In this document: one piece after another, positions 14,596-44,439 of the stretch
Layout of the letters: the number at the start of each line of letters is the position of its first letter
How positions within the stretch are numbered: position 1 is the first letter of the stretch
From: Marsupella aquatica
Lineage: Eukaryota > Plantae > Marchantiophyta
Direction: 5' to 3'
DNA: 64,000 nucleotides
Assembly: GCA_973895155.1 (NCBI GenBank)
Contig: OZ316894.1
Coordinates: 24,054,709 to 24,118,708 of the forward strand
Translations under genes and position numbers: made by a program
Notes under the pieces: generated by a model
The model's input: only the letters and a program-made list of their open reading frames with translations
The model's database searches: none
Told to the model about the DNA's origin: nothing

Positions 14596-15359
14596 CAAGA
14601 TTACACCATAGCATGGACTCTTCTCTTGCTCCCATACACTTCAAATGGGTATGATAGCCATGACAGAAAACAAAAAACAAAAAACCTGTTACCAGGGGTT
14701 TATTTTCTGTTAACAGGGAAATTGTACCTGTTACTAGTAAGCTTGTCCCTGTTACCAGTTTTGCCTGAACCATAACGTGCATATCCACCACTCTAAGGTG
14801 CATATCCACCACTCTAATGGCATAATTTTTCGGGGGGCAATAAAGTTTAAAACAAACAATTATTTTGTGCCATCCGATGGATGAAGTGTACTATCAATCC
14901 TCCATTGACACAACAATTTATTATAGAAGATAAAAAACATGGTATTAGGAGTGTGCCTAAAGAAACATTCATGCAAATCAATCTATTTTCATCGCCAAAT
15001 AGTGACCCTTAGAGTGGGACCCACCATAGCACATGTCAATCGTGGAGTCCAAATCAACCCAATCTAAAGGAGTTGATTAAATGGACCTTGTAACGTCACA
15101 AACAAATGACAAATCACATCCTCGAGGCTTTGAAGACAGTAGACAATTTAATCAACTTACACATTTTAAATAAAACAAGAGGTCATTCTTCCACAATGCA
15201 CGTACATAATGAAGCAATGAATATCCAGTTTCCTAGAACCAGCGCCCGACGCTAACCAACAAAGTCTCAATAAAACAACTAAAATATCCGTTGGAAAAAG
15301 ACAAAATAGGGAATAACCGTTATATTGAACGACGACCTATTGGGCAGTTTCGATCTCTC

Positions 15360-18300
15360 TCATAAGCCATTCAAGTTCTGCATCTCCAGCACAAGCTTGA
15401 CTTCACCTAAAGTCAAAATAGGTTGGCTACAAAGAGTCGACTCCTCAATCTCAAGTTTGAAAACATTTATGTACACCCAGTATAGATGTTTGCAAGGCAT
15501 GTACGACTTGCCACGCGAATGTCGGAGGAAGAAGTCTTCACAAGAGCAAGCGGGGAAGATACAGATTTGGACGAAGTATGTGCTTGGTGATCGATGGTTC
15601 TCATGGGTTCGAATTCGAAATTGCTTTCCAAAAGCATTTCCGGTCTGAACATTCCATTCCCCATCCAAACTCATCACTTCTTGTCGTGCAGACTCCATTC
15701 GCTTCGTGTGACCCATAGTGAGATTAGACCGAGGCCTTGAGTTCCTCCCATTCCGACTACCAAGTCGGAGATTCAGCTCCAAAAACCTTATTGTTTCTGG
15801 GAACACGTTAACATTTATCCTGAGGTCAAAAGCAGATGGCACAGATTGACTCAATCCTGTTGTTCGCGCTAAGACAAGTCCTTGCTCTTCCAGGAATGTA
15901 ATTTCAGAAGGAGACAGGCTCGTACCCTTCAGAACAGGCAAAATGTCAGGAAAAGGAGGAAGCTTCTGAACACCACGACGCGGATGACTCTTGTAACACG
16001 CTTGGTTCGGGCAAAACCAAATCATTTCGGAGATGGGTTCGCCCCTGAAGAGACGATGGCCCTTCACGACAATTCTGACAACACCTTCAGACGAATGGAA
16101 GCCAACCTTCTTGATACGATTTTGACACTCATCGCGATCCGAACTCCCATTTAGTGTACCATTGCATTGCGGACCTGCTCCATACTTTGATGTCCGTCGC
16201 AACTGCCACTGCCCCGGAGGGACATCCTTCTCTAGCACAATCGTGCGTGGAAGTTGATTCTGAAGTGCTGCTGGGGCACTGAGTGGAGGTTTTGAGGATC
16301 TTGTTGTTTGGGTTGTTTGAGGAGTATAGTCCAGTGAATCAGTATCACTCTCTGATGTGACCATACCTGAGAGATTCACTGCCTTTGTGACAGGATGATC
16401 AGAACTTGAGGGAATAGAAGAAAAGTCAGTTCTGTTCAGGTTCTTCCTTTTCAAACCACGAGTATTTGGTGTGGTTATTAGAACGGTGTCATGCCGATGG
16501 GAATCTTGTGGAGAGACAGTCCCAGTTGCATGTCCCTTCCTCTTCATTGACTTCGTCATTATATCTCCATTCAGGGGAGTACTTCTTTCCAAATCGAATT
16601 CTGCTGCGTTAGATAGAAGCATATTAGTCGCTTCTTCAAACAATCTTGGCGAACCTGCTTGATTGGCAGAACGGAACGCTAATTCCCATATAGTTGGCCC
16701 CTTCCCCCGGTTCAAGCCTTTACGGTATGCACTGTATCCGGCAACTTGAGACAGAGCACGGTTTTGGTCAACTTTGCAAGCTTCATAAAGACCGACCTTT
16801 TTCTTTGTAGCCGAGGCTTTCATGGACGCATGCCTTGATTCTGACCCTGTACAGTTGGGGATCAAGGCACCTTCCTCAGCGCTTTTGCTCTGCCATACGA
16901 AAATGTCAACCGTAAGTAGTATTCTATTACCAGCGCCCGGCGCTGGCAACATAAATATGTAGAACAGGCCTGAAATACAATTTCAATGTTTAATACTGAA
17001 TTCTAACTACATATTGGCTTCAATTTCTTGTACTACTTGTTTTGACGTGTATGGAGAAAATAACCAGCGCCTGGCGCTAATATGAAGTTGATGAACATTA
17101 CAATCTAGATAGATGGATGCCTTACCACTCGAATAAAATTGCCCCACTGGCGCCAGCGAACAACCCACCAAGATATCCAGCTTTGCAGCATCTTCAGCTT
17201 TCCGGGGACACAGTTTCCTGATTGCCACCACACAACAATCTCTCGGGACACCCGGTATGCTGCCACAAATGATGGTGCATTTCTCAGTTTCTCCCAAAGT
17301 CTTCGATGCTCCGATTGACATTCTTCCAGTACTCCTTCCTTGGAATGATGATGAAAAGATTGATAAAAGTGAAATGCATCAGAGCGCTCCCTCTCCGGGT
17401 CCGGGTGTCCACCAAAAAAAACATTTTGCACTGCATTCCATCCAGCTTGTGCATTGTCGGCCATAAATCCTTGGATGACAACCTCCTGAAGTTCATTTTC
17501 TTTGCAAACCTCAATCATCACTCTCCATGCCTTTTTGAAGGACTCAGTGTCTTCACCTTTCAACTCGCATATGAAAATTGTACACAGTGCACGGAAATTG
17601 TGGTCGTAGACGTGTGCGCTGAAAGTAAACCAATCCGTGGTGACACGCTGCATCACATCAAAACTTACCCAGGGTCCTTCGAGTCTTCCACCCGGTTGCA
17701 TCTGCCTCAAAAGATCCACACCGGAACCGTGACCTTTCACGGTCATTTTAAAGATGTGAGGCCTATCGTTCTGACATCCCTGACCTGGAAGCAAATACCT
17801 TTGGAGAAACGACACATGAATCCTCCTCTGCATTTGCAAGAGAAAATCTAATTCACCCCGACCTTTTTGGTCTATCCTAACGCTCCGACAAAGAGATGCA
17901 AACTTCTGCGGAGTGGAAAGGACCATCAGAGACTTCCATATTTCAGTTTCTTTGATATCGACCATGTCGTCAACATGTTCGCAGAGAGATTTCACTAAGG
18001 ACCCTGTAGCAGAATTCAAGATCCCTGCCGGTTTTGACAGAGGATTGGCTTCATGTTTTTTTTTAATTAGATCCTCAGCTATCTTCTCCGCACTCCTACA
18101 GAAGGTTTTTCTACCTGGATGGTTGTGCTCACCTATATGAATTGCCAAGCGGGACATATGACTACATGTTTCCGCATCAAGTAATACTTGGGGGTACATG
18201 TAAAACAAACGAGCAGGGCAGTACTTCACACAAAAAGGAATCTGTTCGCAGTAATGACAAACAACACCTCCCTCTTCGATGAAAGATCCCACAGCATACT

Positions 18301-19111
18301 GACCACTGAGCTTTGGAGTACCCTACCATGCCTTAGCATTTGCCTTCTTCTTCCTTTGGAAATAGTCGCAAGACTTGTTCCTGCATTCAATGAATCCCGT
18401 ACAGGTAACCTTCCCAAACTGCCAAAGGTTTTTAGGATGAACAGTTGCAGTTGTTGGAAATATGCGTGTCCAAATGTAACAATCTTTGGCATGATCCATG
18501 TCCCTAAGCCTAGAGCCTTTAGAGAGCATCTTATCAATGGGTGGCAACTCAAACACGACGTTACCATTGTACTTAGTTGGCAGACAAGACACTTGTTCAT
18601 GCCTGAAATCACCCGCTGATATGAACCATGACAACTCACTATGACTAGTTGATTTGAGTAACGTATCCATCGCATTGCGCCGGTACACGACCTCCAACTG
18701 CTTAGAGCTTCCCGGAGTCTCAGCTTTCACGACAGCAGGGAGCGGGCTTTTCTTCTTCGATGGTGGACTTAGAGTACGATCTCCATCCTCACTTGAAGAA
18801 ATCTCAACCACATCACATGGAACCGACGGGAAACTGGACAGTCCTGCATGCTGTCTTAAACAAACCGAGTACAAGATCCCTGCGTAGAGATGCCAAAACC
18901 GTTCACCGTCATCGACATTGAACGTTGCAGCATCCTCGATATCATCAATGGATTCGAGCTCTCAAACAATGGCCTCAATGTCATTCATCTTCAAATCAAA
19001 TCTCCCGCAGAGATACCTCTCCCGGACCTGCTTGTACGTATCTTCCATGGGGACGGGGATAGTCACAATATCTTCAGAACCGAATCGAGAAAGAACGATA
19101 GACCGAGACAT
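15360..19111 (-). pseudogene. MULE/Mutator-like transposase with GCM/WRKY-like zinc-finger N-terminus and C-terminal SWIM finger
   Basis: ORFs 18962-19111, 18323-18874 and 17105-18292 are in one frame separated by single stops. Cys/His cluster (CTG..C.N..C; C..C...C...CPA...H.G.H.HP), core FDVMQRV...FMADNAQ...DAFH...SESRH, SWIM CSCEDF...PCKHL. Intron ~16890-17125. Confidence 0.75.
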
Positions 19112-19299
19112 GGTGAACAAAAACAAAAACTGAGGGCTATAGCGTTTGAAAGAAGAAAAGTTCATGGTATTGTTCAGCTTATATCTGTCAAACCTGGGAA
19201 TTTGACGTTAACCGATCCGTTTGTATACGACATAAAACATAGACGATGGAGGATCCGTTGGCACCATAAATGATTTTTGTCGTTTTTTCCCCGAGAAGT

Positions 19300-20075
19300 C
19301 CGGATGTCAGACACGAACATATTGCTAAAAAGATCACCAACCTTACTTAAACAGACCATAAGATATGACAAGGTATTGTCAAATTTTAGTAGCGCCTGGC
19401 GCTAACTAAAATACGCCACTAAAAATGTGTCTGAAATCTCGACATTCCAAACTAGCGCCCGGCGCTAGTATAGAATAAATTCCCTGAAAATGAACATTAT
19501 GACCACATACCAGGTGGTAATTGGGAATAAATGGTGCCTTCAAAGGATGGTTTTGATTGATTATGGATGATAAATAAACATTTATACTAGCGCCGGGCGC
19601 TAGTATTACATTTGAGAAATATTTCTCCGTAAACGATGTACTGAAGGATACTTTAATAAAATATGGGGGTGGAAAGGCCAAAATTTATGTCATAGCTCCT
19701 TCAAAAAAGACCTCTAAATTTCTTCCAGTTTATACTAGCGTCGGGCGCTATTATAAGCATACTCTAAATTGTTCACCTTGATGGTCATCATTAATGCTAG
19801 CGCCCGACGCTAGTATTGATATGATGTTAGGAAATGTCTTTAACGGTAACATTCAACGGTAACTTATGACTTCCGTGTGTGTTACGCATCTTCTACCGTT
19901 TGATTTTGGTAATTAAACCTTCCGTATACAGACGTTGGAAACTGCGAAACATCAGAGCTAATGGCTTTCCTCTAGGTTATGTCATCCTCCCGCTAGAATA
20001 TATTACACGTTCAGAGATGATTATAGTTCCATAATTTCATTGTACGATAGTTCGTACACTTCTAGAAGGAAGACG
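19300..20075. promoter_or_regulatory. Divergent intergenic/promoter region with 5 clustered AGCGC palindromes
   Basis: AT-rich spacer between the minus-strand MULE-like gene and the plus-strand ParB-like gene. Palindromes at 19391-19811. Confidence 0.55.
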
Positions 20076-23000
20076 ATGGAGGTATTCCCCTCTTCTTCCA
20101 GAGGGTATAGTGCGGTTCCTGACCAGGAGCGAGCTTATTCTGAATCTTTGCAGTCTTCGTTTACTGGTTCAGTCTATACACGTCGTGTAACTCGTTCCTC
20201 AAAGTTGTTGCCGCTCACTTCTGTCAGCGGTGTTTTGGGTCCAAATCCTTTGCAAAGAAAGATGGACAACGTAGACACAATTGCGATCTAGGATGTTGCG
20301 GATTGCGCGCTTGCTGAGATTGATCTCATTTCGAAACATGTCATGTCTTTTGGAAAGGATTCTCGTGGATTTGACAAGGAGCCGCCTCGAATCCCTCTAT
20401 GTCGATTGGTTCACATGGAGGTGGTTCGTACTCTGCAGAAAGACAGCTCTTCCATCGAGAAGCTGAAAGACTCTTTTCGTAGTATGGGTTACAACTCTTC
20501 GATAGGGATGCGTTTCTATGTGCAGCCAACGGATGAGAACGGAATTGTTCTGACCTGTACCCAGGACATTCGTGATTCATGGGATCCAATATGGCAATTG
20601 GAGAACGAGAAGTTTGAGGCTGAATGCGAGGCTGACCCAGATTTTCTCGTCTTGAAGGATAAGATGTTCTCTGTATTCGATGGAAATCACAGGTTGTACT
20701 CCTGGACGCTTGTAACAGAGGAGAACCCGGACAATCCAAAATATCATCCTCGTGTGCTCTGTACAATATTTAAAGGAGACAAGGGATCTCTCATTGAAAT
20801 TGAGGTAGCTATGCACACGTGAATCAGTAAGTTCTCATGATTTCCAGTTCTTTCCTTAAATCTTGCGAGTGTTGTATTTACTAGCGCTCGGCGCTGCTTA
20901 TACATGAATTGTTTTTCATTGACTCTTACTCTCAACGTTTGTTCGTGTAGGCTTGGCCAAGCAGTTGTAGAGCCTTCCTGGATCCTGGATGCGGACATAA
21001 TCAAACGAATTCTGGCGCATGACCTTGAGTATTACAATAAACTAATTGACCCGGGTAATTTCAAGAAGTTTGAAAGCATTCGGATGAAAACTCGGAAGGG
21101 GTCATAGTATACGAAGAAGATGCCACAAGAAGCACTTGTTTACATTCTTTGTGAGAATAAGATAAAGTTGTACTCGCATCAATTCAAACTCGACATGGAG
21201 GTAGCGGAGGCTCAAGGGAGTCCATGGTAGGCGGACGAGATTTCAAAACGGCATGCGGCCATGATGAAAGACGCAACCAAAGATTGGGCAGTGAAGTCTT
21301 CAAAAATTACGCCCTTATTAAGTCCTGAATTTGAAGATTTCCTTAGTACATGTGCAGAAATGTATGCTGTCACAGAGAGAAACAAGAGAGAGAAGAAGCC
21401 TGACACCGTTGTATGTACGATGGACCGCGCACGATTGTTCACCATTGTTTCTGCTCTAGACCCAAAGTTACGAAGCACTTTACTTGTGGCACATTGCAAT
21501 CCTGAGCTGCGGAGATAGTTTTTTCACCCAGCAAGTGTTAACGATGATTTAGTCAAACAGTGGTGCCACACTTGGATCACTTGGAATAGTGTGGAGGGAA
21601 TTGCTGCTGGCATGTTACATTCATGTCTACGTGAAGTTGAGCAAACCATGCCCGCGAATAGATTGGAAGAGTGGAATTGTAGTTTGTTTGATGATCTAGT
21701 TCAGTTTGTTACAAATGAATTCAAGAGATTTGGTGATTCCGTGAAGAATAAGTTCTTTCACACTATGTGGCCTTCAAAGTACCCTGACAAAGAAGATTAC
21801 ACCCAGAGAAACCAGAAGCGAGCGAAGAGGTTTGTGTATAGGTTCTACATGCACATGGAGGTAACCAAACCTGATTACTTCTGGGCATATCCTGCAGCTT
21901 TTATGAAGTGGATTTCAATAAGTGAAGATGATGCCTTGGCTGATTTGTACTCTATGTACCCCACGGAGGGCATATTTCCTCCGAGACCAATGACAGAATG
22001 GGAGAGAACTCACTGCCCCTGGTATCTAGATATAGATAGATGGGATTCTCTTTTTGATCAAAGGGAAAAAGATGCCTTCCATAAGCTTTCAAAGTCTCAG
22101 ATGCCAGCAAAACTTGTGTCCGACATGAAGCAAGGTCTACTTGACGATGTAGACAAGTCTGCCACAAACTTGCAAACTATCTGTGAAACAACTGTTGTGC
22201 ATGTGGACCGGAGTCGCAAACCTCGCGCGAAAGCCAAAGCGGAGCTAGCAGCACCGAGCGAGTCTACTAAATCTGGAAAGAAGAGTAAGTATTGCTATCC
22301 ATGATTTTGCCAGCGCCAGGCGCTGGCAAAAAATATTTTGTTGAGGGTATTCTCTTTCTTGGTTATTAGGCTTCGGTTGCGACTTAAGTGAATTGCATTT
22401 GGTTAGCGCTAGGCGCTAGCTTCTTTCAATACTTTAAAAGTACTTATTCTAACTACGACCTGGTTATATTTTAGGAGGGAGGAAGTCTAATACGGTGGGA
22501 ACGGGAGATACGAAAAAGGATGCTACACCTGAAGTTTCTGAGGCAAACACGGGAGCTCGATTAGACCCCATTACTCCAGTTGACAAAGGGAAGGTTATAG
22601 TTCCTATCGACGCCACGAGTACCAAGAAGAAACGAAAGAGAGCTGTCGAAGGTGGACAATCTTTAAGGGAGAGTTTTATAGCTTCTGGTTTCCAACGTGA
22701 AGTTGGAAACTTCAAAACAACTATGTCTCGCCATTGCATGGTTGAGACAAGCCTTTCTGAATTTTTTGACTCGATGTTCAACAAGGAGGAGAAGCCCGAG
22801 TGGGTTAGTGATGTGGAGAAATGGGGAAAAGACCTCGTTAAGTTGGGATTTAAAGAGAAGGGAGTTGTTCGGGGGGGAAAAGTAAGATCATTTGGAGTGG
22901 ATGCCGGCTTCATTTACCTACCGACCGGGTTCAAACCATCTATCATTGATAAGAAGGTTCCTAAATGGAACATTCCAGATCACTCAATGGCTAGATCTTT

Positions 23001-24159
23001 TTTCAAATCCATGGATCCATTTTTATCAGATGATGGGTTCCTTGTAATTCTACACAATGGGGAGTACGATCCCATGTCGCAAGTCATTGCTGCCTGTCAG
23101 GAGTCAAGGAAATTTCAGTGTATATGCTCGCATAATGTTGTGATGTCTGACCCGATGTATGCGGCAAAGACATACCGAGAGATGTTTACCCTCAGGCTCA
23201 ACATATTTGGCTGAATTAATGGGAAATGTAAAATTCCCAAAGACCCCAAATTTTGGCCACTGTCCATCAGTGAGGACCCTTCGGTTACCAATTTGATCGG
23301 ACTCTCTTCGCTCAAATCAGATCCATTCCCGCAAATGGAGTTTGCTGGAAATGCTCGTCTGTCTGTGGGTTTTATGCAATCTGTTATAGAGCTTGTCACA
23401 CGGCCTCGTGATATTTTTATGGATTGGACTGCTGGGGCTGGAGGCTCTTACATTGCTGACGACTTCTCTGGACGATTTGTACTCGGGATAGAACACCGGA
23501 AAGAATTTATTGAAACCGCTTCAAAGGTTTTCATGGATTTGTTGTCTCCCAAAGAGATTGCAGTGTTACCTCCACCTGTTCCTACTGCCGACAGAAAAAA
23601 AAAAGATAAGCTTTGATCGGTTCTCAATTTTGATTTTGATGATGAATCGAGTGAAGGTGGAGAGGAACAAGGTACAAGAAACTCCGAGGAGGAAAAGGGT
23701 GAGCGTCGTGCAGCTGTAGATGAAACCGATAGTGATGACTCTTCCGAGTAATGTTCATAAACTCGTAAGCTTCTTTCTCCATTCCCGTCAATTCATAACA
23801 TTTCTTTTGTTGTTTTGGGGAAAGGCACCTTACAAAATGGACTTTGTTATATCAGGTCAGAGTGGAATGCAAGGAGACAATTCAAACTGCGGAGGAAGAT
23901 CGCGAGACACAACGTAGAAATACCGGAAAAACCGTTTGTTCTTCCCTCCTATGCAGAGAAAGCCGCAAGGAAAGCAGAAAGTGCAAGGACACTTTGCTGG
24001 GAAAACAAAGGTCTTCGGTTACGAAGGGGTGTTGACCGAAAGTTCATTAAACATCCTTATGTTGATGACTTCTCCCGCAGCCAGTACGTAGATGATGAGG
24101 CTGTGTCCACGGACAGATCCCAGAGTACAGATTCTGGTTCCGACTCAGAATCTTGGTAG
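20076..24159 (+). pseudogene. Large spliced gene: ParB/Srx-like N-terminal domain + C-terminal beta-class amino-methyltransferase-like domain
   Basis: IEKLKDSFRSMGY...VFDGNHRLYSW (ParB-N signature GxHR) at 20343-20822. C-terminal FMQSVIELVTRPRDIFMDWTAGAGGS.IA..FSGRFVLGIE (SAM-binding motif I in beta order) at 23293-23616. Degenerate motif IV candidate FIYLPTG and FLSDDG.L in 22495-23214. Introns ~20827-20950 and ~22286-22474. Several premature stops. 3' end uncertain. Confidence 0.65.
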
Positions 24160-24419
24160 TTGAGGCTAAATCTTTTAGCAGCGCCCGGCGCTTGTAACAT
24201 CTGTATTATTTCCCTCTGCTGAGGGTCCTTTTAAATTGTTGATTTCTCTCTACTTGTTGATTACTTTTGACTTTTGTTCTTTACAAGCGCCTGGCGCTCG
24301 CCAAATGGAATCTCTAAATGGCCGTTTAGTCTTTGTTGTTTCCTGTCAACGGTCATCGTCATTGGATACCAACTGCCATTTGGATTGTGTTCTTTAGTCA
24401 GTCGTCGGAAAACCGTTGG

Positions 24420-24800
24420 GGACCATAGTTTCGGGACGATGATTCCATAGTTTAGGGACCGGGCGGAAGAGACGACTATAGTTTCAGTTTAGGTTTGTTC
24501 GGGATGACGAGAGTTGGGGACGTCGATAGTTGAGGACAATGATAGTTTCGAGAGGATGATAGAACGGGATGATAGAATGGGAGGGGAGACTTTGTTTCGA
24601 GATGACGATAGAACGTGACGATAGAACGGGATGATAGTTCATTTGGGAAGACTTTGTTTCAGGAAGACAATAGAACGGGACGTTAGAGTAGGGCGATAGA
24701 ACGGGACGATACCTGTTACCAAGGTGAAGATAGTTTCGGGAGGCAATAGAACGGGACGATGATAGTTTGATGGTCGTTTCGGAACGGTAGTGTACGCGAA
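24420..24800. repeat. Degenerate short tandem repeat (gatagaacgggac / gatagtttcggga)
   Basis: More than 10 imperfect copies of gatagaacggga and gatagtttcg units. Confidence 0.75.
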
Positions 24801-24973
24801 CCTTTATCTGGCGTCTTAGTCTTCGCGGACCTTTCTTTGACCTTTGTCGGCTATAGCACTCGCGGACGACGTTCTTACGGGAGGAGAGGTTACATATTAG
24901 ATCGGGATCTTTGAAACATGGCGAGTCAGTATGAGCCAATGGATTGGGAGGCAGCTTTTCGTCCTTCTCGTGT

Positions 24974-25400
24974 CACTACTACATATTGGCCCCTTTTGCA
25001 AAGCTTTTTTTTGACGTCGGGATGGTCTTGCGATGTCATCAACTTCAGATATTTTGTGATCAAACACGCATCACAATAAACCATGCTCACAGGTTCGTAA
25101 CATGGTGTTGCGAAGCTAAATACCTTGCAATTTGTTTGAGATCGGATTGAATTTGCAACTCTTTCAGATACTATTTGTCTCGCAAAGTATTTGTGGATCC
25201 GCGATCATCGCGACTGCATTTGGATCTCTTTTGTTTCATAATTTAGCGATAATAATGTACTCAAATATATATTGTGAACCTATTAGCTTCGCACAATATT
25301 GTGAAGCATAAATAGTCGCAAGTTACCGAATCCAGTTGATTCGCAAAGTTGAGAACACATTGGCATCACAATTACCGATGGTGTGTTATTCACAAAGTGT
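24974..25400 (+). mobile_element. CACTA-like terminus (CACTACTACA) with ttgcga/tcgcaa subterminal repeats
   Basis: CACTACTACAT at 24974 followed by many (t)tgcga/tcgca(a) motifs in both orientations. Partner end not confirmed. Confidence 0.5.
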
Positions 25401-25728
25401 TCAGAAGTTGCTTCTTGACAAGCTTGAAAATGCTTTGCAAAGAGAGTTGTTTGAAAATTTTGTAGAATGGAAATGTTTGAGAGAGTTTCTTTACAAGATG
25501 GAGAATGCATGTGTTTAGGTTACAGCTAGGGTTTTCAAAAAGGTGGCATGCATGAGGATAGCTTTGGAAACGGCTAAGGTTGCATATATAACAGTGAGAT
25601 GAAATTTCAAAGTCCAATTAAGTGTTTGTAAAACAAAAGAAGAAAAGTAATATGTTAATATAAATAAAACCATGATAGTTAGTTTAGGGTCAAATTCTGG
25701 GCCCACAACAAGTTTTACTACTAGTGCA

Positions 25729-28700: not shown

Positions 28701-28999
28701 TACGTTGAGGCCTTGGATCATGTGCAACATTTGGTGGAGGGTCTCCTTCATTGGGTGGGACACCTCCTTCACCACCAATGTCTACACCAAACCAATCTGT
28801 CATGAAGTCATCCATGGCTGACTCTTGGTCTTGCATGACCTCATAATCTGTCCGAGGTGCCCCTTCATCTGGACTGTCATTATCATTGTCACTTGATGAG
28901 GAATCTGCTGATGATGTTTCCCCGTCTTGTGGCAAGCCCATTTCTTGATATGTAGCTCTCAACCTCCTTGGCAACATATCTTGACTAGGCCGCACATTC
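25729..28999 (-). pseudogene. EnSpm/CACTA Tnp2-type transposase (Transposase_21 + DUF4218 + DUF4216-like)
   Basis: IHACVNDCILY, CPICQEPRY, WFPIIPRL, RHVRLGLASDG, YNLPPW, HDYPG, LDPMHIEGN, KTHDYH, PPSFFD..VHLLVHL, WMY.LERYM.VLK.YVRNRARVEGS, YGKIEEI, FKCKWF. Intron ~27677-27808 and an apparent frameshift just after it. Confidence 0.93.
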
Positions 29000-29148
29000 T
29001 ATAGAAAATACAATAAAGTATTCACAATGAAATTAACGCCAAATATAGTAGTGCTCGAAACATATTATTAACAATATAAAAAGAACATATCATTACAAAA
29101 CATACGTTCACATACGATGAACGTATAATACATGTCCCTAAAGTAATC

Positions 29149-29965: not shown

Positions 29966-30075
29966 TATAGGAAGAAATGGAACCAAGTGAGTGTGATGAA
30001 CCTCCCAAATTTTATTTTATGCTACCTAGCAAGATTTACAAAATAAAATGGAAATCACAGTAAGTTTACAACTCA

Positions 30076-30310: not shown

Positions 30311-31619
30311 CTGACAAGTATAGCAATTGGAAGGCAATTAGTAAAAACTTCACCAAAACCATCATTGATAATCCCTACCTAAATATATTAAAAAGAATTG
30401 ACAGAAAAATACCTTTATGAGACCCGGGCTTAGCAATGCCTTGACGATTTTGTGGGAGGGAATGGATCTTGACTATGTTGTCTGGGTTTGGACGCATCTT
30501 GTCTCCAAGAAATGACTAGTTTTCTAGTTAGTTTTTGGCTAGCGCCGAGCGCTATTCATGTATTAGTCGAAAACCTCCGACGGTGTCGACCGTGACTTCA
30601 TGGATGGGATTTTTAGGCCAGATTGTTGATGTTGATAACTGCATTTTGTATCACTTAAGCCGAGCGCGTTTTCTATTTTGCGATAATATATGCGAATGTT
30701 TTTTCCGGCCTTTCTTTTCTACTTGTATTTGTCTTGGATTTTGTGTATCTCAATTGGCAGCCATCTTTTATGTTTCAAAAAATTGTTTCCGTGTTGTTCT
30801 TTTATTTATCACGAGGGTTTGGTGGTTTTGTTTTCTATTCTTGTACTTTCAAATGGAGATTTTGAGACCTTTTTTTAAGATCACTTTTCACGACCATCCA
30901 AACACTGTTCACTGGTAACAGCTACCAGTGAACAGTTTCCTGTTACTATTACCAGTGAACAGTTTCCTGTTACTGTTATCTGTTTGCTGTCGTTTGTAAA
31001 TTCCCCCTTCAAATGCACTCACACTTAATGGTCACAATGAAGATTGGTCACAATGAAGATTGACAAGGTGCATTGCAAGATTGAGGACTACCAAAGCAGG
31101 CAAAAAGTCTCAAGTCCTTTCACTAATCCAAAGGACTATCAACGGCCAAGATTAGCACATCTAAAGTCAAAAAGGACTTAAACAAATCAAATGCGTATAA
31201 GATGCATTCATTAGTATTTCAGCTCCCGAGGTAACCCCTTTCTTGTCGCAACTATAATTTATGAGTGAAGGACAACCGGTTCTCTAGGAGAGTGCTGGTG
31301 CTATTAGTTCTGCGTGGAGGACTTTTCAAAAACAAGGAGTCAAAGTCCTTTGGGGAAACTCATTTTTTGTCCCGACATATAATTTACAGTTGGACAACTA
31401 GTTCTGTGGGAGAATGTCGTCGGCGCTACTAGTTTCGCAGGGAATTTTCAAAATCTAGGAGTGAGAGTCCTTCTCACTTAGGCGCGAGCTACAATTTGTT
31501 CAGAAAGTATCGAAGCCGAGCGCAAGGGTCCATACTTAGCCTCGTGAAGCACAAGATGGATGCCTCTGTGAGAATTCATTCAAGAGCAGTCGTGCAATGA
31601 TGTGAGATTCAAGATGTTC

Positions 31620-33835: not shown

Positions 33836-35747
33836 ACGCATTCATACCATTTTGAGATTTTAGAGTCTAGGCGGAGGACCCTAAGGGCAAGCATTCCAAC
33901 ATAGGTCAACGCCCACATTCGAATGCCAAGGCAGAGCACCCAAACTGCTTGCACTCAAGTGCATGCAGCCCACCTTCATCCACTAAATAAAGGTGAGCAC
34001 GATAATTGTGGTTGTGATGACCAATTGCAGGAAGATTCCATTCTTGAGAAGAGGAGGAAGGATGCAGACAGGAAGAGATTTGAGTACCAAAGGAGCAAGC
34101 GCTCTGTTCCAGAAGACGGTGTAACTCCCAACCAAAAGAGAAGGTGCATTACAATTGTGTTATCAGATATAGTTAGGTACATTTTGGAGAAGACCGCTAC
34201 ATTCAATGTAGGTGCAAGGAGGGCAGTACTATCTGGTATCTGGTTGCACAAATACTTGAAGAAGTACCAGCCTACAAGACTAGGTTTGCCTAAAATGGAT
34301 TGGGCTGTAGCTGCTGCATTATAACACGATTTCGGACCGACCGAGAAGTGTGTCGGAGTTCTCGTTTAGCCCGATCCCATTTTTTTTCTAAGGCAATGCA
34401 ATGACCGATAAAACTGGCAAAAACTCTCCAAAATGCCACTTTCCTCCATTGCATCGCCGCGGGAATGTAGGGAGCGATACGTGCATCGGGTTTTACATTC
34501 CATCAGTGAAAAAGTCCAAACTACGAGGTCCAAACCGCATAATCCAGGAACGACCACGCACTAACCCAGGTAAAGGGGAAACTTAACCATGGTTAAGGGG
34601 AAATTAACCATGGTTTAGAGCGTCTCCTATATAAAGAGGAGCGGGCTGCCCATAAAACGTTTGCTTTCGCCAGAGCAAATATCTCTTGACTGAGAGCGAA
34701 TACCAAACTCCCATCGAGTCTTACATTCCTCCCAAGCGATTCGACTCTTTCTACCGAAAACCCGATAAATTTATCGGAACAACCATTCCTGTTCAAGTTC
34801 TCCATGTAAGACTAACTAGTCATTTAGTGTAAAATGTCCAGATCTGAACGGACTACGATAAATTTATCGCATTCTGCATTCCTCTGTTGCAATCATTTGA
34901 TCCAGTGTTTAGAGAGGTGTTGCCTTCATTCCGATAAATTTATCGGAGTCTTCATTCCTTTCATGGAAAGAGGAGTAATTGAGAATCCGATAAATTTATC
35001 GGAGTTATCATTTTTGTGAAAGATTGAATTCAGGGCTTAGGTGTCTGAGGAAGTCATATTTTCAATTCGAATGCGGAGTGCGATAAACTTATCGCATCCT
35101 CCTGTGAGAATCATTTTCCTTTGTTTTGTTTGGAGACTCATCTTCATCTCTGATGTCACAGTGTTGCCGGGTTTAGGAGGCACAACGGAAGGTCGATTGC
35201 ACTCCGTGGACAACAGGTATTGTGACAAATGGCTGTCTTCCATGTATTGTCAAACATGCATGCCGGTTGTACAAGAGACTTGTGCGACTCAAAGTTCTCC
35301 CCATCGGTATAGGAGCATTGTGGATGGGTGGTACTGATCCTGGAGATAGGCAGAATCCTCTCCGCATTGAATTTATGGAATGAATGATGCAGGAGTTCCA
35401 ATTCGTTCGAGGTTGATGTTAACGGCGTGTTTACATTCTTTGGAGTTTTCTTGTAACTATTGTTGTCGTCGTCTTGACAACAAGTACCACAAATAGGCTC
35501 ACTTCTGTTGTAAGATTTGGAACGAAGACCCTTGGGTGAACCTTTCACGATGAGTGTTTTGACCTTTGCATTGAGGCGCGTCTTGTAAGGACATATTTAA
35601 ATAAACAAGTCCTACCCTTGCGCAGCGAATATAATACGTCACGAGTCCTAATCGTTAAACTGTCGTGCAGGGTTGGTATTGTGGATGTGTTCGGTTACAC
35701 CTGGTGATTGAAGGTATTTTTATTGGTGGTTTTGGTAGCTCTGCTTC

Positions 35748-36290
35748 ATGGCTGCGTCGGAGAATCTAATCGTTGCAAAGATGGGATCCGTTTTAGCCCA
35801 CGAGCGTAGGAAATATATTCGAGGAAAAGTGCTCGGTGTGGAATGTGGAACTTTGTTGAATGGACTTCCCGATCAACTCATTGAATCTCACATTTGGCCC
35901 CTCCTAGCCTTGTCTTGCACACAAGATGAACACCTTGGCCTTGACCTAAAACTTCTACCAGAAGAACGACTGACTCGAATGAGAACAATCATTTGTCTTG
36001 GAGCCACCTCAAAGAAATGGAACCATCTTGTTGTTGGTACACGATTTTGGGCGCTATTGAAATATGCAGTCCATGAGATCAATGACATAAACAAAATGCT
36101 TGCAAGCATTCCTAATGCCGACCTTCTCTCAAACATACATATTGCTAGGGTCTTCCAAGAGGAAACTCATTTCCTCCCTCCCATAGATATGCTTGGGTGC
36201 TTTTTGTATGAGCAGTTAGATCAGTTTCGTAGAGTTTGGATAAATCTTGGAGAAAGTGGGAAGCAGACAATTCTTGCATGGCATGGATGA
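35748..36290 (+). CDS. F-box-like protein (cargo of the Sola1-like element)
   Basis: Intact 180-aa ATG ORF with LNGLPDQLIESHIWPLL ... LGATSKKWNHLV, matching the two ends of the F-box signature with an insertion between them. Confidence 0.55.
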   Translation: MAASENLIVAKMGSVLAHERRKYIRGKVLGVECGTLLNGLPDQLIESHIWPLLALSCTQDEHLGLDLKLLPEERLTRMRTIICLGATSKKWNHLVVGTRFWALLKYAVHEINDINKMLASIPNADLLSNIHIARVFQEETHFLPPIDMLGCFLYEQLDQFRRVWINLGESGKQTILAWHG

Positions 36291-36859
36291 GTCTGAGTGG
36301 ATGAGGCATTGCTGTGAACATCCGATAAATTTATCGCACTCCTCATTCCTCTAGTCGATTTTGGGTGCTCTAAGGTTTGCTCAAGAAGAGCTTGTAAAGA
36401 AACACTTTGAATGTAATTGACTCTGCCTCCCCTGACTTCGGGTGGTGTGGTCCAGAGTGTATTTGTTTGCGCCTCTTTGGACGATTAGCTGACAAGTGCA
36501 TTGGCTTCACAGCCCGTTATACAAGGTACTGTAAAGTTGGATGAAACTTGTAGAATTGTAATTAGTATGTTCTCCAAAATTTATTCCTGATTTCTATTCG
36601 GTGATCAGACCATGCTCGAGCGACGCATTTTTGTACCCTACTTGGATCCTCCAGAATGGGGGAATGGAGCCATGCTGGACCAGCTAAGAAGGCTGGATGA
36701 GTCACTAATTTTAAAGATATGCAGGCTGGTAGTAAAACCATAATGCATTTCACTTCTACGTAGATCAGGTACGGGGAGAAATTTATATTTGGTGGGATAG
36801 ATATGTTGGATTTTCTAGAAGAGTTATCCTACTCTTTCTGAAAACCGGTGTAGTAAGAC

Positions 36860-38805
36860 ATTTTATACTCGACTGCTGTCATGTTGTGAAGAGCAATCCT
36901 GCTTATGATCCAGAATTCTATGCCGACAATAGACGTAGAGCATTCGATGAGATTCAGGATGTGATTGACGAGCTGGACAATCCTCTTGCCACCGAGTTTT
37001 TTATTGACACTGGTGGGAAACTATATTCATACAAGATTCGTCAACTCCCCCCCAGCCGGTCTGTGCGCTCTTTAACTTGATCTATGTAAGTTGCCTGTGG
37101 ACGAACGTCCTTGCCAATGGTGAGATCTGTCCATGCTGCACAAATGCTTGTTGTGACATTCCGTCCGCCAAGGTGAAGAAACTATTTTTGCAGATATCTG
37201 GTCAGCCAGATTGGGCAACATGCAGAGAAATGTTTCCCAACGAAACAGATGTCTCGGTCCTTGGCATATGGGCGGAGAAATTGAGTGACGCGGTAAGCAT
37301 TCCTCTCACAACATGCTCTATCGCGAGATTTTTATCAGCTTTAGCATTCCTTTGTTGGTTTCTAAGCGATTGCATCTATCAGCTAGCGTGCTCCATCGCA
37401 AGATTTTTATCGGCTTTAGCATTCCTTTGTTGGTTTCTAAGCGATTGCATCTATCAGCTAGCGTGCTCCATCGCAAGATTTTTATCGGCTTTAGCATTCC
37501 TTTGTTGGTTTCTAAGCGATTGCATCTATCAGCTAGCGTGCTCCATCGCGAGATTTTTATCAGCTTTAGCATTCCTTTGTTGGTTTCTAAGCGATTGCAT
37601 CTATCGGCTAGCGTGCTCCATCGCGAGATTTTTATCGGCTTTAGCATTCATCTCACGCTATTCTAACTGTAGATGTGTCTGACATTTTTACAGCTGAAGA
37701 TTAATTTAAAAAGGAAAAGCAAAGTGGTTCCGGCTGTCACTTATAATTCTGCGGGGGAGGTTATTTTTCCCTCAGCTGAAATCCCTTATGTGTTTAAGAA
37801 TTTTGTGCTTGCTGCAATCGATAAGTACAATCGGCTGAGGTCCTTAGGCGAGGGCACAGCAGAAGCGTTTGAACAAACATGGAAAAATGCAGACGGGGAT
37901 TCTTTTCCCTACTATCTCCATGTTGGTGATGTTCGAATTTTGGATTCTTTTGTTCAGCCAAGGGCTTACACCCTTGTGGTTGCGGATATTCCGTATGGTT
38001 TTAATGCTCCTGGTTCGGAGTTTGATGAAGTGGCCTTCACAGAAAAGGACATTTTAGACATGTTGACAAGTTTCTCAAAGATGACGACCGCTAAGTAGTG
38101 GAGGTTTGTTGTGATCCATTCACTACAACAAACGCATATGGTGATGTCTGCATTGGACAGTGTATGCAACTGTGGGTCGAGGCTGGAATCTGGGAGAAGA
38201 CTAACATTCATGAGCGTCCCGCTGGAGCTCGATTGGCGTGGGGTTTTGAGAACTGGTCGATAGGTTTCTATAGCGAGGAAGGCATTCGGAACATGGACAT
38301 GTACAATTTCCAACCGGATGAGTCTCACGTCAATATCATCAAGGTTCCATGTGTAACCAAGAAGTCCGTTGATCCGTTGGGATTTGTTGTGAACCCGTAT
38401 CAGAAGCCTGTTGGTTTGGGGGCTTGGTTTGTTTCCCATTTTTTTGAGAAAGAGGATTGGGTTATTGATCTTTGTTGTGGAACCAGATTGACATTAGCTG
38501 CTACGCTCCTCAATTCTTGCCAGGGTTGTGCTGTTGATAAGAGTTCTACGCAGATTGATTTTGTGAAATCCCGGATCATGATTCTGGAGTCAAACTGGAA
38601 TTTATATGAAGAATCCCAAATTGAAGGGCACGGCATTGAAGGTCATGAGATTCAACCACCAATTGCAGGCCAATTGGGTGTTCTCGGGACATCGACTTAC
38701 ATAGTTGAGGTCGTGAAGGAGACCGAAGAGGAACAAGAAGAAACTAAGGAAGAGCCTCCCAGAACACCAAATGAGGATGATCTCAACGACATGTTATTAG
38801 ATTAG
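36860..38805 (+). pseudogene. Beta-class N6A/N4C DNA methyltransferase-like gene (cargo of the Sola1-like element)
   Basis: GDV..LD, LVVADIPYG (motif IV, DPPY-like), IWEK.N...FE.W.IG, NPYQKPVGL, WVIDLCCGT..T.AA...G.AVD (motif I): beta-class order. Introns ~37086-37192 and ~37292-37693. One stop (38096-38098) and a frameshift. 5' end uncertain. Confidence 0.8.
37314..37650. repeat. 75-bp tandem repeat x ~4.5 inside the MTase intron
   Basis: Unit gctccatcgcaagatttttatcggctttagcattcctttgttggtttctaagcgattgcatctatcagctagcgt. Each unit carries a cg/caagatttttatcg variant of the element palindrome. Confidence 0.95.
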
Positions 38806-39139
38806 TTGCGTGTGCTCGTTAGGATAATGTCAATCACCAATGGAGTTGTCGATAAATTTATCGGATTCTGTATTCCATGAGGAAGAACCTTGGTCACCTT
38901 TATTAATGCAATAAATTTATTGGACTTTGCATATATCAGACTGTCGCGGTGTTCTAGCTGGGGAATGGAGTTGTCGATAATCTTATCGGACTTAGCATTG
39001 TATGCTCTAATTGGTTTGTCATTGCAATTATTTCAAAAAAAAAGATATCATTATAGCTGCGAAGTACATAGTCCCAGAACGATAACCACTATACATATTC
39101 ATGGGAACGATAACCATTATAACTTAAACCTGCAACTAG

Positions 39140-42100
39140 CTTCGACTATCAACGACTACAGTCTCCATTGCATTTTGAATGATTCGTCTTGTTTGTATAG
39201 GGAGAGTACTATTTGCCAATAACACAAAGTTATACGCATAAATGGCAGTTCTGCTAGGGACAATTCATCCTCCAGTACTTTTTTAGACGAAGCCTCTTTC
39301 TCCGGATAATATCTGCCTTCAATTGCAGACTCTTCCTCCAAATCCATTGCATACCAAGTGATTTTAATCCGCTCCGGGATGTCGTTAATTCTTGTGAGAA
39401 TCTCAGTCACTTTTGCCATCCAGAATGGTCTTCCCTTGGGATCCTGATGGGCTGCTACACATATCATTGCAAATTTAGTATTCACCTCTAGATCCTTGAG
39501 GTCTCCAATTTCCGTGACTTTTCTTCCACTTCCGGAATACATGACAGTCCTCACACCCGCTACTTTATCAACCAAGCTAGGTTCCATTGCTGCTTTTGTA
39601 GGATTACTCAGAAGTTCTCTCTGTACGTTTACCTTGGGCCAACTCCAATCAAAACTCCATTGTGCAGGTTTCAGGTGGTGCTGAATCGCTTCTTTTTGTT
39701 TGTCAAAAAAACGACCCCACCATAGATGATCTTTGTCGTCAAAGTAATTGAATCCATCTTCAATTGCTCTTCGATATTTTTGAAGAGTTGACAAATAACT
39801 TTGAGCCGCCCGCTCATCTTGTTCCTCAGCATCATTCTCTTGCTCTTCATTGTCTCCTGTCGCTCCCGTGGCCGACTTCAATGCCATTTGTGGTGCGACC
39901 CACATTCCAGATGATGGAATGTACCGAACAAAATCCCCCGTCTCCCCCCAATCGGTTGTCGTTGAAAGATGTTTGGCATGGAATACGGACCGAGCACTTC
40001 CATCTTCGAGTACTCTAGTAATCCAAAATTGTTTTTGAGCACTTATGTCGTGGAGAGTACGTAGAACCTGACCATCCATATCCTTGTCATTTGCTTGATC
40101 CTTGTCTGACACAAATTTCTTGAAATCGGCAACCTCGTCGACAAAAAATATCTTTGCCATAGGATTGTAGGATTCCTCTATGATTGCTGAAAGAGTGTCC
40201 AACCGGAAAGCTTTCCGCTTGTTCAATTTTGAAGAAAACTTGCTAAACATTTGATCAATTTGATCATGGGTGTGCCCCACCAATAGGAAACCAACCTTTA
40301 TTTTCTGGAAAACACCTATCTCCACCAACATATTCAAATATGCCATAAGATATTTATTCTTGTTTTCCCGAGCTTTGTTATCAGGCTAGAAGTAAAGCAC
40401 TGGAGGGAGCAGACCTTCCCAGGTATTCAAAATATGCTGGATAATGTGGATGGTCAGGTTGCTATCATTGTGAATATTTGGATAGTTCAAAAAAACATTT
40501 GAACTTAATTGTTTGTTGAAGATCAAACAACCCACTACGTGTACGGTGATGAAATACTTTTCATCCATATTCTTCAGACACCGAATGAAATGAGGTAACT
40601 CTATCTTCTTTTGATCCATTCCATCAATACAGATGCCCAAATATTTCTCCGGACTCTTGTAACATTTCATCCGGTGCTTTGCTAACTTCTCCCTCTCGAC
40701 TGCTTGTGCCTTCCGATGCTCGTTTAGCAATGTTGAGAATTTTCCTACAATAATAAAAATGTTTAGGACAAAACATGATAATAGCAATGTTGAACCCTGA
40801 CAGCGATAAATTTATCGGGTTCAGTATTCAAATACGAGACCGTAATGATAAACCCTGACAACGATAAATTTATCGGGTTCAGTATTCAAACACAAGACCG
40901 TAATGAAAAACTGTGACAGCGATAAATTTATCAAGTTCAGTATTCAAACTATTCAAACGATATATTCACTCACATGGCCAAAGAAGAAGCACATGAATAC
41001 TCAACCCGATAAAATTATCGGGAGTAACACACAGGTTTAGAAACTTACTCTTTTCTGCTTCGAGTGTTGCCTTATCACAGAGTGCTTTGAATTCAGTACA
41101 CGGGGTGCAGGTGGAGAAACGGCTCCTTTTGGGGATGCGCACGCGAGGAAACTCCTTGTTCCAAATGCGAACAAACCACGAATATGTCATGCCTTGTTCT
41201 TGGCGCATTAGAGTTTTGGACTGGAAGGCATCAAAAACTTCTGTTTTTGTCCAATTGTCAGGTAAATGAAAGATATCCTTGTTGGGGAGACTCTCGACAT
41301 TTGTGGAAAAAAAATCATCCAACCATTGGACGAGACCAAGATATGCGGGTGATTTTTCTCGACAAACTGTACCGATCTGTATCCGAGAAAACATGTTCTG
41401 CGAGATTTTTTGGAGACGATTATATCCTAGTGAAAATAATTTCTTAAAACCACTCCAACAAAAGGATCTACCGCTAACTGAGTAACCACTTGCACCAACA
41501 TGCCCACCCTTCACCCATCCTCTTAGAAGGACGTTCTTCTCTGGGTAGGATAGCCCATAGTAATAAGTGCGTTGTTTCGTCACGGCTAGCAGACCCAAAT
41601 TTCTCAGACAATAATTATCACAACACAAATACTTATGAATTTCTCTCATTTTATTTCTATTCAATTTGTCATTTATCACATTGTCTTTCCTCAGTAATTC
41701 GGTCCCTATCTTTTTTACTAGGCTCATTTGACTTCTCTACAGCCTGAAATCCGTTCATAACATTGGCATTTTTGGGTCCTTCAGGTGCCTCGCGAATAGA
41801 TGCATCACTCTCTACTGAGCTACCATCCTCTATAGATCTCCTTGACGCATTTAGAGGGGCACTGAATAGACGACTATAACTATTCTCTTGAATCGATAGC
41901 TCCTTCTAAACATTCAGACACAACTTGTGCTATTATATCGGATTCTCTATCTCCTTCCTCATCTTCGTCCTCCGATGCACTCGACTCATCTGAAAACACA
42001 ATTGGACTCCGTGGCTCTCTATGCATAACCTGAACGCCACTAAGACCTCTCCTCAATACTTGGAGCCTGGAACCAATGATAGTCCGCCCTTGAGAACTTG

Positions 42101-42731
42101 GAGATTCTGGATTTGCACGTGCAGTCCCAACGACTCCGCGAGCTGCTGGAAAATTGATCACTTGTTCACCACGATTCCCACGGACCATTCGAGAAAGGGC
42201 TGAGTCTGGACTTTGCAGTCCGATTCCCTCGCTTGCTCGCACATCCAATCCAGGCAATGCAAAGACCGATCGTCATATCCGTCTTTGTATTTTTGTGTCC
42301 CAATCCTCACCCGGAGACTGAAAGATCCATCGTTGAACTTGTGTTGAATGTGGTGACTTGAATGCCGACTACGATACGCGTATCGGTCGCCGGATACCCT
42401 CTCCATAACCCGGGATGGATGGCCTGAAGCGACGTCTCGGACCTAAACCTGGGATTGAAAGTTTCTCATTTCTTGGCGATGGAATGCTCAAGAGACGACG
42501 CTTCTCAGGTTTACTAGGCGACACATAGTAAGCACTGGGCTCAGGACCAGAACTTGCATCAGAATCTGAGTCAGAGATTTCGGGCACTATTTGCTGTGAG
42601 AGAGGTAGAGCTTTAAGTATGCGACTTGGCAAACAGCGAACGACAAGATTAGGAGATGATTCCACTGAACTGGAAGGTGAATCTGTGTCTGATTGAGACA
42701 TGGCTATCCGAGACACTATGGGGCTTTGCAT
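39140..42731 (-). pseudogene. Sola1-like (DUF7869-type) transposase, disrupted
   Basis: CC...C, C...FKKL, ESLPNKD..HLP, F.RIW..EFP.VRIPK.SRFSTC..C, IDGMDQKK..LPHF, LYF(Q>stop).DN..RENKN.Y.MAYL..LVE.GVF, GFLLVGHTHDQIDQMFS. Intron ~40746-41048. Low-complexity N-terminus with frameshifts. Confidence 0.8.
40790..40950. repeat. 58-bp tandem repeat x3 in the transposase intron, one CGATAAATTTATCG per unit
   Basis: aaccctgaca.cgataaatttatcgggttcagtattcaaa.ac.agaccgtaatga repeated. Confidence 0.92.
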
Positions 42732-42987
42732 TCCTCCCGCAATCAGGGAAAACGAAAGGCTCAACGGACATAATGTTGCTCCAAGAACACAACTCCCAAA
42801 ACTCTACTCTCGATAATGACGCCAAAGACTTATCGGCGGTGGCCCTTTTATAGTGTCTGTTGAGGGGTTGGCCCATGTGTTCACTTTTGATTGGCTGTCA
42901 CCCTAAACAACAAAATAGCATAAAATGGTATATTTCTTGGATTTCCAATTTCATTCTCACACGTGCATCGTGGCAAAATTATATAGT

Positions 42988-43135
42988 TTTGAAATTGAAG
43001 CGATAAATTTATCTGATGTTGGTATTGCAAAAGTGGTTCCTTCATATGGAAGTTGCAATTTGAAATTGAAGCGATAAATTTATCTGATGTTGGTATTGCG
43101 AAGAGTTTTCTTCATATGGATAGGAATTTTGAAAT
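42988..43135. repeat. ~70-bp tandem duplication with palindrome variant upstream of the Sola1-like transposase
   Basis: tttgaaattgaagcgataaatttatctgatgttggtattgc...cttcatatgga x2. Confidence 0.85.
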
Positions 43136-44439
43136 TTAACCGATGAACCGAAGGATCTTAGTATTGTCGACTTGTATTTTTGTCGCCCGTAGTTTTCGCG
43201 ATAATTTTATCGGACTGCGCATTGCTGTTGAAAGAATGGCATGTTGACTATGGTCACTTGCGGAGGTAACTGGTCAATTGCGGAGGTAACTACAAGGTAA
43301 GTTTGACGAACCGTGCAGTAATTCTTATCGACTGTGATGTAAAATATTTTTGGTAAATATCCAAAAACTAAGAAAACTAAGATTGGGTCAGAGCTTTCAT
43401 GGCTCAAATCCGGAGTCCGATACAGTTATCGCACTTGGCTCGAAACGTGGATATGGATTTATAGATAAGACCTTTCATATATCTTCGGAGAGCGTGAATA
43501 TGAGGTTGAGGAGAAAGTTTTTCGGATCTAATTGTTCCTTGATAATATGAATGTTTGTTAGCATGAATTTCATTGGTTTTGATCATTATTAAATTTGCTG
43601 TTTCAATCCGAACTCCGATATGAATTACATTATTTCCCCAAAAACGTGTTTTTGATGAAAAAAACTGTCGATTTCGTGAGATTCGGCGAAAAATGAAAAT
43701 ACACTTCTCGTTTAGAGGAAATAGTTCTCGTTTGGTCCGAAATCGTGTTTTATGTGATGTGAGGAAAACCTTGAGCATAGTGAAGCAAAGGAAGCGCAAA
43801 GACCATCTTGCTGCAAAGTACCAAGTTTTGTCAGCACTTGTAGGAAAGACATGTGTAGATAGAAGGCAACAGACCTCTCTAGCTCAAGCTTTGGGTATAC
43901 AACGGCAAAATCTTCATAGGGCATCTAAGATCAGGATGCAGATTTATGAAGATCGTGAAAAAGCTTATCCTATGGGGGAAAGAAAGGTACGTCGAGATAA
44001 GATTTTTGATGAAGTTCGAAAACAGGTGGAACACTTTTGGGAAACCCACACTCGGATTTCTCCATGTAAGAACAATGAAGCCAGATTGCGACTAGGGCGG
44101 AAAATGTATGAAACACATCAAGTGCACTGGCTGGAGGATACACAGGTGAGAAATTCTCCATGATTGATTTGCCACTTTTGATTTTAACTCATAATACGAT
44201 CTGCAGATGTTGAGAAGTAGTTTTCCTTCATGTGTGCTTTAGCCATTGTGCTTTGCTATAACCGCCTAGTTTTTTCTTTAAGGTAGGATCTCAATAATTT
44301 TGTGAGACCTGACGTCCTATATAGCCTAGCAGGAAGGACTCTGTTCCAGGAAAATTCCTTCAGGAAGCACTGTTGAATCCTTGTCAAGTGAAGTCTGGCA
44401 TGAGACGAGTTGAGTCCTTGGCAAAGTACTATCTAGTTA

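Follow-up and report, generated by a model that had tools for sequence, protein, structure and literature searches.

We report here that two DNA transposons in a 64,000-nucleotide stretch of the genome of the liverwort Marsupella aquatica (assembly GCA_973895155.1, contig OZ316894.1, positions 24,054,709 to 24,118,708 of the forward strand; hereafter the window, in whose numbering coordinates are given) each combine a transposase gene, an oppositely oriented cargo gene related to beta-class amino-methylases, and a private CG-containing palindrome repeated through the non-coding parts of the element. Element A is a Mutator-like insertion of 16,359 bp (14648..31006) and element B a Sola1-like transposon of 9,427 bp (34323..43749); we refer to them and their relatives as family A and family B. 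The cargo of family B is predicted, from protein models, to be a ParB/Noc-like fold and a helix-turn-helix fused to a beta-class methylase. We lean towards the interpretation that the ParB-type module of the cargo binds the palindromes, in trans on copies of its own family, and would thereby lower CG methylation.

An earlier note on this DNA had described two transposons, each with a private palindrome that spares exons, and both statements hold. Motif A, AGCGCCNGGCGCT, has 14 matches at no more than one mismatch within 15241..30553, of which 13 lie in 15241-24298 (starting at 15241, 16932, 17066, 19391, 19454, 19589, 19737, 19799, 20883, 22312, 22405, 24180 and 24286) and one, at 30541, lies near the right end of element A; 100 shuffles gave a mean of 0.02 and a maximum of 1. 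Motif B, CGATAANNTTATCG, has 16 matches at the same threshold within 34763..43431 (34763, 34856, 34932, 34988, 35081, 36323, 38850, 38975, 40804, 40862, 40920, 41007, 43001, 43072, 43199 and 43418), the mean of 100 shuffles being 0.01 and the maximum again 1. A 17th copy of motif B at 38909 is CpG-decayed twice, and further variants are found in a 75-bp repeat. In an unbiased palindrome census of the window, both motifs ranked near the top, outranked only by a satellite at 44.5-45.2 kb. According to hand-drawn exon models, exons are overlapped by 0/13 motif A copies in 14650-24970 and by 0/16 motif B copies. Exons make up 0.71 of element A (14650-24970) and 0.57 of element B, and the probability of such avoidance is ~1e-7 and ~2e-6, respectively. 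Splice sites flank the motif-bearing introns, and groups of motifs are found in the promoters, both in the shared one of element A (19391-19811) and in those of element B. The termini of each element have sub-repeats of their own, distinct from the dispersed palindromes. No dispersed palindrome family was found in the cargo-less elements of the window, that is, neither in a CACTA-like segment nested in element A (0 copies of motif A in 24974-30400) nor in the host DDE element, into which element B is inserted.

The flanks of the motifs are mostly non-homologous between copies, and some copies stand in tandem, in a 58-bp unit (40786-40949) and a 75-bp unit (37314-37649). Each of these units carries a copy or variant of motif B. 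It is possible, by analogy with what has been described for VANDAL transposons, that the units were a route of motif B amplification.

Alignments of both cargo families have the order typical of beta-class enzymes, with catalytic motif IV N-terminal to the S-adenosylmethionine (SAM)-binding motif I. Among 16 intact methylase relatives in the cargo B family (51-66% identity), D(I/V)PY is present in 16/16, ahead of the SAM motif, and DLC(C/S)GTG in 15/16. A protein model of one such relative, P0003 (mean predicted local distance difference test score, pLDDT, of 60), matches CcrM (E 7e-14) and other beta-class N6-adenine methylases. The cargo B family thus retains a catalytic motif of the type found in enzymes forming N6-methyladenine (6mA), and we predict from its motifs that it is an N6-adenine methylase. 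For the methylase half of cargo A, whose class is assigned by sequence match alone (the fold match being that of the cargo B relative), HMMER gave 88 matches and a word-based search among longer proteins gave none; named relatives come from the liverworts Calypogeia and Riccia and the moss Ceratodon, as would suit a bryophyte host. Of 89 aligned sequences of cargo A relatives, 45 cover motif IV with its proline, and none of these (0/45) has a catalytic aromatic residue (Y/F/W) in the motif, 29/45 having T. Cargo A is thus probably a pseudo-methylase, which would act by occupancy or recruitment. Because cargo A lacks the catalytic motif, binding, and not methylation, would be the function that the two cargoes share. 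The formation of N4-methylcytosine (4mC) through an SPPY motif is rejected here, cargo B having D(I/V)PY and cargo A no catalytic motif.

These results alter several earlier proposals. The recognition of the cargoes as amino-methylase-like stands as far as the beta class of both is concerned; it does not extend to catalysis by cargo A, and the ParB-like part had been missed. Marking by 6mA or 4mC as a mechanism common to both elements has to be given up, since no relative among the 45 of cargo A has the catalytic aromatic, and 4mC is unlikely given D(I/V)PY rather than SPPY in cargo B. A distant homology links the methylase halves of cargo A and cargo B (probability 37% and E 3.5e-4 by hhalign), and for that reason the suggested convergence across superfamilies is doubtful. 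A cassette moving between transposon superfamilies would be the simpler explanation.

The exon preceding the methylase in family B is present in three of the loci described below (L001, L002 and L004), and its model has a mean pLDDT of 79. Noc/ParB proteins make up its Foldseek top 10 (E 8e-5), PadC is matched with a VIA Z of 9.9 over 100 residues (root-mean-square deviation 3.0) and KorB with a Z of 8.6. The fold matches of this ParB-like part (7nfu, 6sdk, 7ol9, 8qa8) have TM-scores of 0.2-0.5 and identities of 10-21%. Matches to HTH_ParB in family B stayed below the cut-off (5/27, best E 7e-4), and P0134 crosses the junction between the ParB and methylase exons. The more N-terminal exon of the family-B cargo is conserved as well (L001:643-1242 versus L002:393-992, 39% identity). 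It shows a weak Atlas hint (0.80) of an SRA domain, a methylcytosine reader, which is a lead only, and a search of the PDB with this exon gave no match. A ParB-like part in cargo A is likewise only a lead: its N-terminal part contains a DGNHR motif and is assigned at 0.92 to an Atlas cluster in which 11% of the members carry ParB_N. The same part (20292-20819) scores 0.95 to a fungal Atlas cluster in which DUF3723 is present in 31% of the members, a possible tie to fungal mobile-element cargo.

Seven further family-B loci (L001-L007), all from one metagenome assembly, were compared. An unbiased census together with a 9-mer count detected a repeated CG-containing motif in L001-L005, a weak one in L006 and none in L007. 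The generic pattern CGA[TG]N6[AC]TCG, the value of which is lessened by its having been formulated after the loci had been inspected, gave 11 matches in L001, 20 in L002, 6 in L003, 6 in L004, 5 in L005, 3 in L006 and 1 in L007, compared with 16 in element B, 0 in the remaining 54.6 kb of the window and no more than 2 per locus in shuffles. Co-occurrence of motif and cargo, anticipated in the earlier note, was accordingly found at 6/7 loci and not at L007. Forty-nine of the 51 pattern matches in L001-L006 lie outside homology-defined coding sequence, and of the other two, L006:2632 is in an in-frame transposase intron. Across loci, the palindromes occupy corresponding cargo introns, transposase introns and spacers, and a transposase placed tail-to-tail as in element B is also present in L003, L004 and L006. 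Three cores share one CGA-N8-TCG frame, namely CGAGACNNGT(C/A)TCG-like in five loci, CGATCCAAACATCG in L002 and CGATAAATTTATCG in the window. These cores track the cargo groups (L001/3/4/5/6, 71-89% alike; L002, 63-70%; window, 52-59%), an agreement that reflects shared descent and is no proof of co-evolution.

The motifs could alternatively be sites for transcription factors of the host, or could have arisen neutrally through local duplication and gene conversion. Such an origin would be in keeping with the tandem units that hold some motif copies, and with a third element of the window that has a palindromic satellite (44489-45223) and no known cargo. It is at odds with the unrelated flanks of most copies, with a frame that is kept while the core varies by subfamily, with the occupation of the same introns at 52-70% protein identity and with the absence of the motifs from the rest of the window. 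We therefore consider this origin very unlikely.

Motif A bears a mutational footprint. Its outer-CpG cytosines are mutated in 0/56 cases versus 6/28 for CHG cytosines (Fisher p 0.001), and all six variants of the motif are C-to-T changes at CHG. The outer CpGs (0/56) differ likewise from CGA/CAG codons, 8/64 of which are now stops (p 0.007), a comparison that presumes that the premature stops arose from CGA/CAG codons. The outer CpGs of motif A thus escaped the surrounding C-to-T decay, and this fits modestly with protection of the motif. For elements that bear a motif, the observed/expected ratio (o/e) of CpG in coding sequence is 0.69-0.82, as against 0.33-0.38 for CACTA and for the host DDE element; the motif-less L007 gives 0.56. 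Binding of the palindromes by the cargo could, however, serve self-repression or copy-number control (as with KorB), the holding of ends in transposition, or the steering of insertion. One of the best fold matches is KorB, a repressor of the ParB family; motifs form clusters in the promoters of both elements; the window copies, to judge from C-to-T differences, were still methylated at CG/CHG; and occupancy alone could produce the CpG footprint. The motif A footprint and the greater CpG content of elements that carry motifs point to lowered CG methylation instead, and we regard a role in repression, end-holding or steering as improbable.

Another possibility is that the palindromes are sites of the transposase itself, for synapsis or self-activation, and that the cargo merely rides along. 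AtMu1 provides a precedent in which a transposase activates its own copies sequence-specifically (10.64898/2026.08.24.746577). In addition, motifs are present in transposase introns and near element ends, transposase and motif are co-inherited, and L007 has the cargo and not the motif. Yet two unrelated transposases share the dispersed-palindrome design only alongside ParB-methylase cargo, and CACTA and the host DDE element have no dispersed palindromes. Moreover, the terminal sub-repeats differ in each element; as separate repeats, they offer the transposase other candidate sites. Finally, binding of TnpA is confined to termini (10.64898/2026.08.24.746577), whereas the motifs described here lie deep inside the elements. 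Taken together, a transposase-binding role appears rather unlikely to us.

Several observations weigh against binding, and a lowering of CG methylation, by the cargo. Besides the window, the seven loci represent about two independent lineages of the motif, and because cargo and transposase are inherited together, co-occurrence cannot tell which of the two proteins binds. L007, a ParB-methylase relative with 39% identity, shows no array of palindromes over 2 kb that include two introns, and scans of viral contigs and prokaryote genomes did not yield a second family-A locus. Motif B has 3 CpG transitions in 17 copies. Between element B and its sister copies, 20/25 C-to-T differences are at CG/CHG among the differences listed (33 in the element; 1034 further rows), and host 5-methylcytosine (5mC) therefore reached this copy; the copies in the window had themselves been heavily methylated at CG/CHG. 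Elements without cargo, the long interspersed nuclear element (LINE) and the Helitron of the window, also have CpG o/e values of 0.67-0.74. The putative ParB-like part of cargo A had no match in Pfam, PDB (by sequence), the family-B profile or PHROG. The ParB consensus has an arginine motif that binds cytidine triphosphate (CTP) where family B has GNHG/GNHS, the full stretch at this position being GGNH(G/S)A(R/C)A. Because the arginine motif is changed, CTP-driven sliding is uncertain in family B.

In the mechanism that we nevertheless favor, in which the cargo binds the palindromes and lowers CG methylation, the copies in introns, promoters and spacers would be candidate loading sites of the accessory protein. 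A dimer would recognize the 13-14-bp palindrome in the manner of ParB at parS and of Noc at NBS, and from there the protein may spread over the element. The addition of 6mA is a possible further step in family B, and family A would work without catalysis. A core that shifts by subfamily while the frame is kept would provide private self-recognition, as in VANC/VANDAL. A broader hypothesis, possible and clearly more doubtful, is that bryophyte DNA transposons of several superfamilies borrowed parS/ParB-type loading as a whole, setting a private palindrome, a spreading ParB-methylase and either 6mA (B) or a dead-enzyme shield (A) against host CG methylation.

ParB-plus-methylase cargo and self-marking have already been proposed for brown and red algae. 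In Ectocarpus, Sola1-1_Ec32 carries on the opposite strand an accessory gene with a ParB-like and an N4C/N6A methyltransferase part, which the authors propose to bind and to modify its own transposon; the element is listed with a target-site duplication of 4 and AACCG-CGGTT termini (PMC12477816, where Iyer et al. 2011 is cited for green algal elements). By description, element B is alike in its 4-bp duplication, its AAC..GTT termini and its opposite-strand fusion of ParB-like and amino-methylase parts. It differs in belonging to a land plant rather than a brown alga and in having defined intronic motifs with subfamily cores on a fixed frame, the target motif being unnamed in the accessible account of Sola1-1_Ec32; here, the same kind of cargo is also found on a Mutator-like element, catalytically degenerate. 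In red algae, as reported for Bostrychia, the Plavaka accessory genes PAG2/PAG3 bring a PF01555 methylase and a ParB-like domain as cargo, with self-binding proposed, inverted-repeat arrays adjoining the ParB gene and a cassette that moves between superfamilies (10.1101/2025.02.11.637652). The red algal cargo is divided between two genes, one joining ParB to a 2OG-oxygenase and the other joining the methylase to SET, and the repeats form tandem arrays beside PAG3; here, a single protein contains both ParB and methylase, and the palindromes are scattered over every non-coding part of the element.

As in VANC/VANDAL (PMC5735166), element A is a Mutator-like element with an accessory gene, and short family-specific motifs lie in non-coding DNA. 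VANDAL motifs occur in introns and in intergenic and terminal non-coding DNA and differ between related families, and CG hypomethylation by VANC, the function of which is proven, is local to bound sites (PMC5735166). The motifs of VANC are 8-9-bp and non-palindromic, whereas those reported here are palindromes with a function that we infer; the cargo pieces had no Pfam match to the VANC-type family, and the cargo is of another fold class. ParB-parS, Noc-NBS and KorB (PMC8367383) resemble the present system in having a ParB/Srx-type fold at the N-terminus, with a helical DNA-binding region after it, and many short palindromic sites, those of ParB and Noc being 16-bp; unlike bacterial ParB, the cargo is fused to a methylase, is without ParA and has, in family B, the changed arginine motif. 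MpDN4MT1 of Marchantia (10.1101/2021.02.12.428880) and N4CMT of a rotifer (PMC8885841), the latter among our fold matches, are likewise eukaryotic proteins with a beta-class amino-methylase fold that came from prokaryotes. Their genes belong to the host, and the enzymes have SPPY and write 4mC, whereas the genes described here are transposon-borne, with D(I/V)PY in cargo B and no catalytic motif in cargo A. ParB-linked methylases have been described in chlorophytes and phages, and few N6A methylases in land plants (PMC4738411); the accessible text on a retrotransposon Dam (10.64898/2026.05.21.726589) does not mention ParB. We found no description of such elements in bryophytes in the literature searched, which covered few subscription papers. 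What is new is the presence of members in land plants, the definition of candidate target sites that share a conserved frame, and a family of pseudo-methylases.

How transposons escape methylation by the host has been worked out in few cases, chiefly those of VANC and TnpA. The present elements supply matched protein-motif pairs, with three cores on one frame, naturally intact genes of the L001/L002 type and a pseudo-enzyme family that can serve as an internal control, so that the idea of self-marking can be tested directly in plants that are tractable. If it is true, family-specific 6mA or ParB-type spreading would join land-plant epigenetics, together with a set of sequence-specific DNA binders. 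On the broader hypothesis given above, land plants would have a second, independently built programmable anti-silencing system and eukaryotes a ParB sliding clamp.

Element A has degenerate terminal inverted repeats, CTGTTAC sub-repeats at both ends and termini GG..CC, and is flanked by a 9-bp target-site duplication, CTTCAAATG, at 14639-14647 and 31007-31015. Its empty site is represented by a loose end before 31007 in run X2, which by eye equals window 14609-14638 in 29/30 letters. The earlier note had treated this region as one MULE/CACTA block; it is a single Mutator-like insertion with a nested, motif-free CACTA. The transposase gene (15360..19111, minus strand) has an intron at 16891-17125 and premature stops at 18964 and 18325. 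Its open reading frames (ORFs) had no Pfam family match; we discern by eye DDE-like motifs and a C-terminal CxC..CKH, which may be MuDR-type and SWIM-like, respectively. Cargo A (20076..23616, plus strand) has introns at 20827-20950 and 22285-22474, six premature stops, and the putative ParB-like part ahead of the beta-class methylase fold. The opposite orientation of cargo and transposase had been noted correctly, the two genes being head-to-head in element A and tail-to-tail in element B. This copy of element A is pseudogenised, with 8 premature stops over its two genes, every one TAG or TGA.

The nested CACTA-like segment (24974..30400, minus strand) comprises a CACTA end at 24974, Tnp2 (25729-28998) and a SET-domain gene (29149-~30320); an inverted copy of the CACTA end, which would mark the right end, was not found within the window. 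The SET-domain gene lies upstream of Tnp2 on the same strand. Because the Tnp2 exon begins at a splice acceptor (28999), the two may share one transcript. The segment is strongly CpG-depleted (o/e 0.33-0.38). A cluster of GGGACGAT / GATAGAACG repeats lies at 24400-24800, between cargo A and the CACTA end.

Element B has the hallmarks of Sola1, a 4-bp target-site duplication (TTAT, 34319-34322 and 43750-43753) and terminal inverted repeats (16 bp, AACACGATTTCGGACC), and its empty site is seen as joints 34318->43750 and 34320->43755 in sequencing runs from 3 studies. The transposase gene (39156..42703, minus strand; intron ~40746-41050, stop at 40388, frameshifts) matches DUF7869 (E 6e-31, Pfam), which we take to be the Sola1 transposase. 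The cargo B remnant (37167..38805, plus strand) retains the last 45 codons of the ParB exon, an intron (37293-37693) and the beta-class methylase exon (DIPY, DLCCGT), which is interrupted by a stop at 38096 and by a frameshift near 38173. The window copy is without the 5' part, and loose ends at 37165/37167 show sister copies running on into the ParB exon. This copy, too, is pseudogenised, with 2 premature stops in its genes (TAG/TGA) and frameshifts. Extra reading frames on the plus strand of element B (35748..37080; 35748-36290 and ~36400-37080) are covered by contigs of all four runs compared. Those scanned had no Pfam or PHROG match, and one contains an F-box-like stretch, by eye.

Element B sits inside the host DDE element (ORFs 33905-34318, 43754-44163 and 52882-54556), presumably Sola2-like, in which a profile search found no methylase cargo. 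The satellite at 44489-45223, inside the same element, consists of AAGGACTATAGTCCTT-type units. A 673-bp stretch at 33163-33837 is skipped in contigs of three runs and represents another insertion polymorphism. Elsewhere, 9685-14051 and 45520-52300 contain a fasciclin gene, a broken PIF1/Helitron-like fragment and a LINE.

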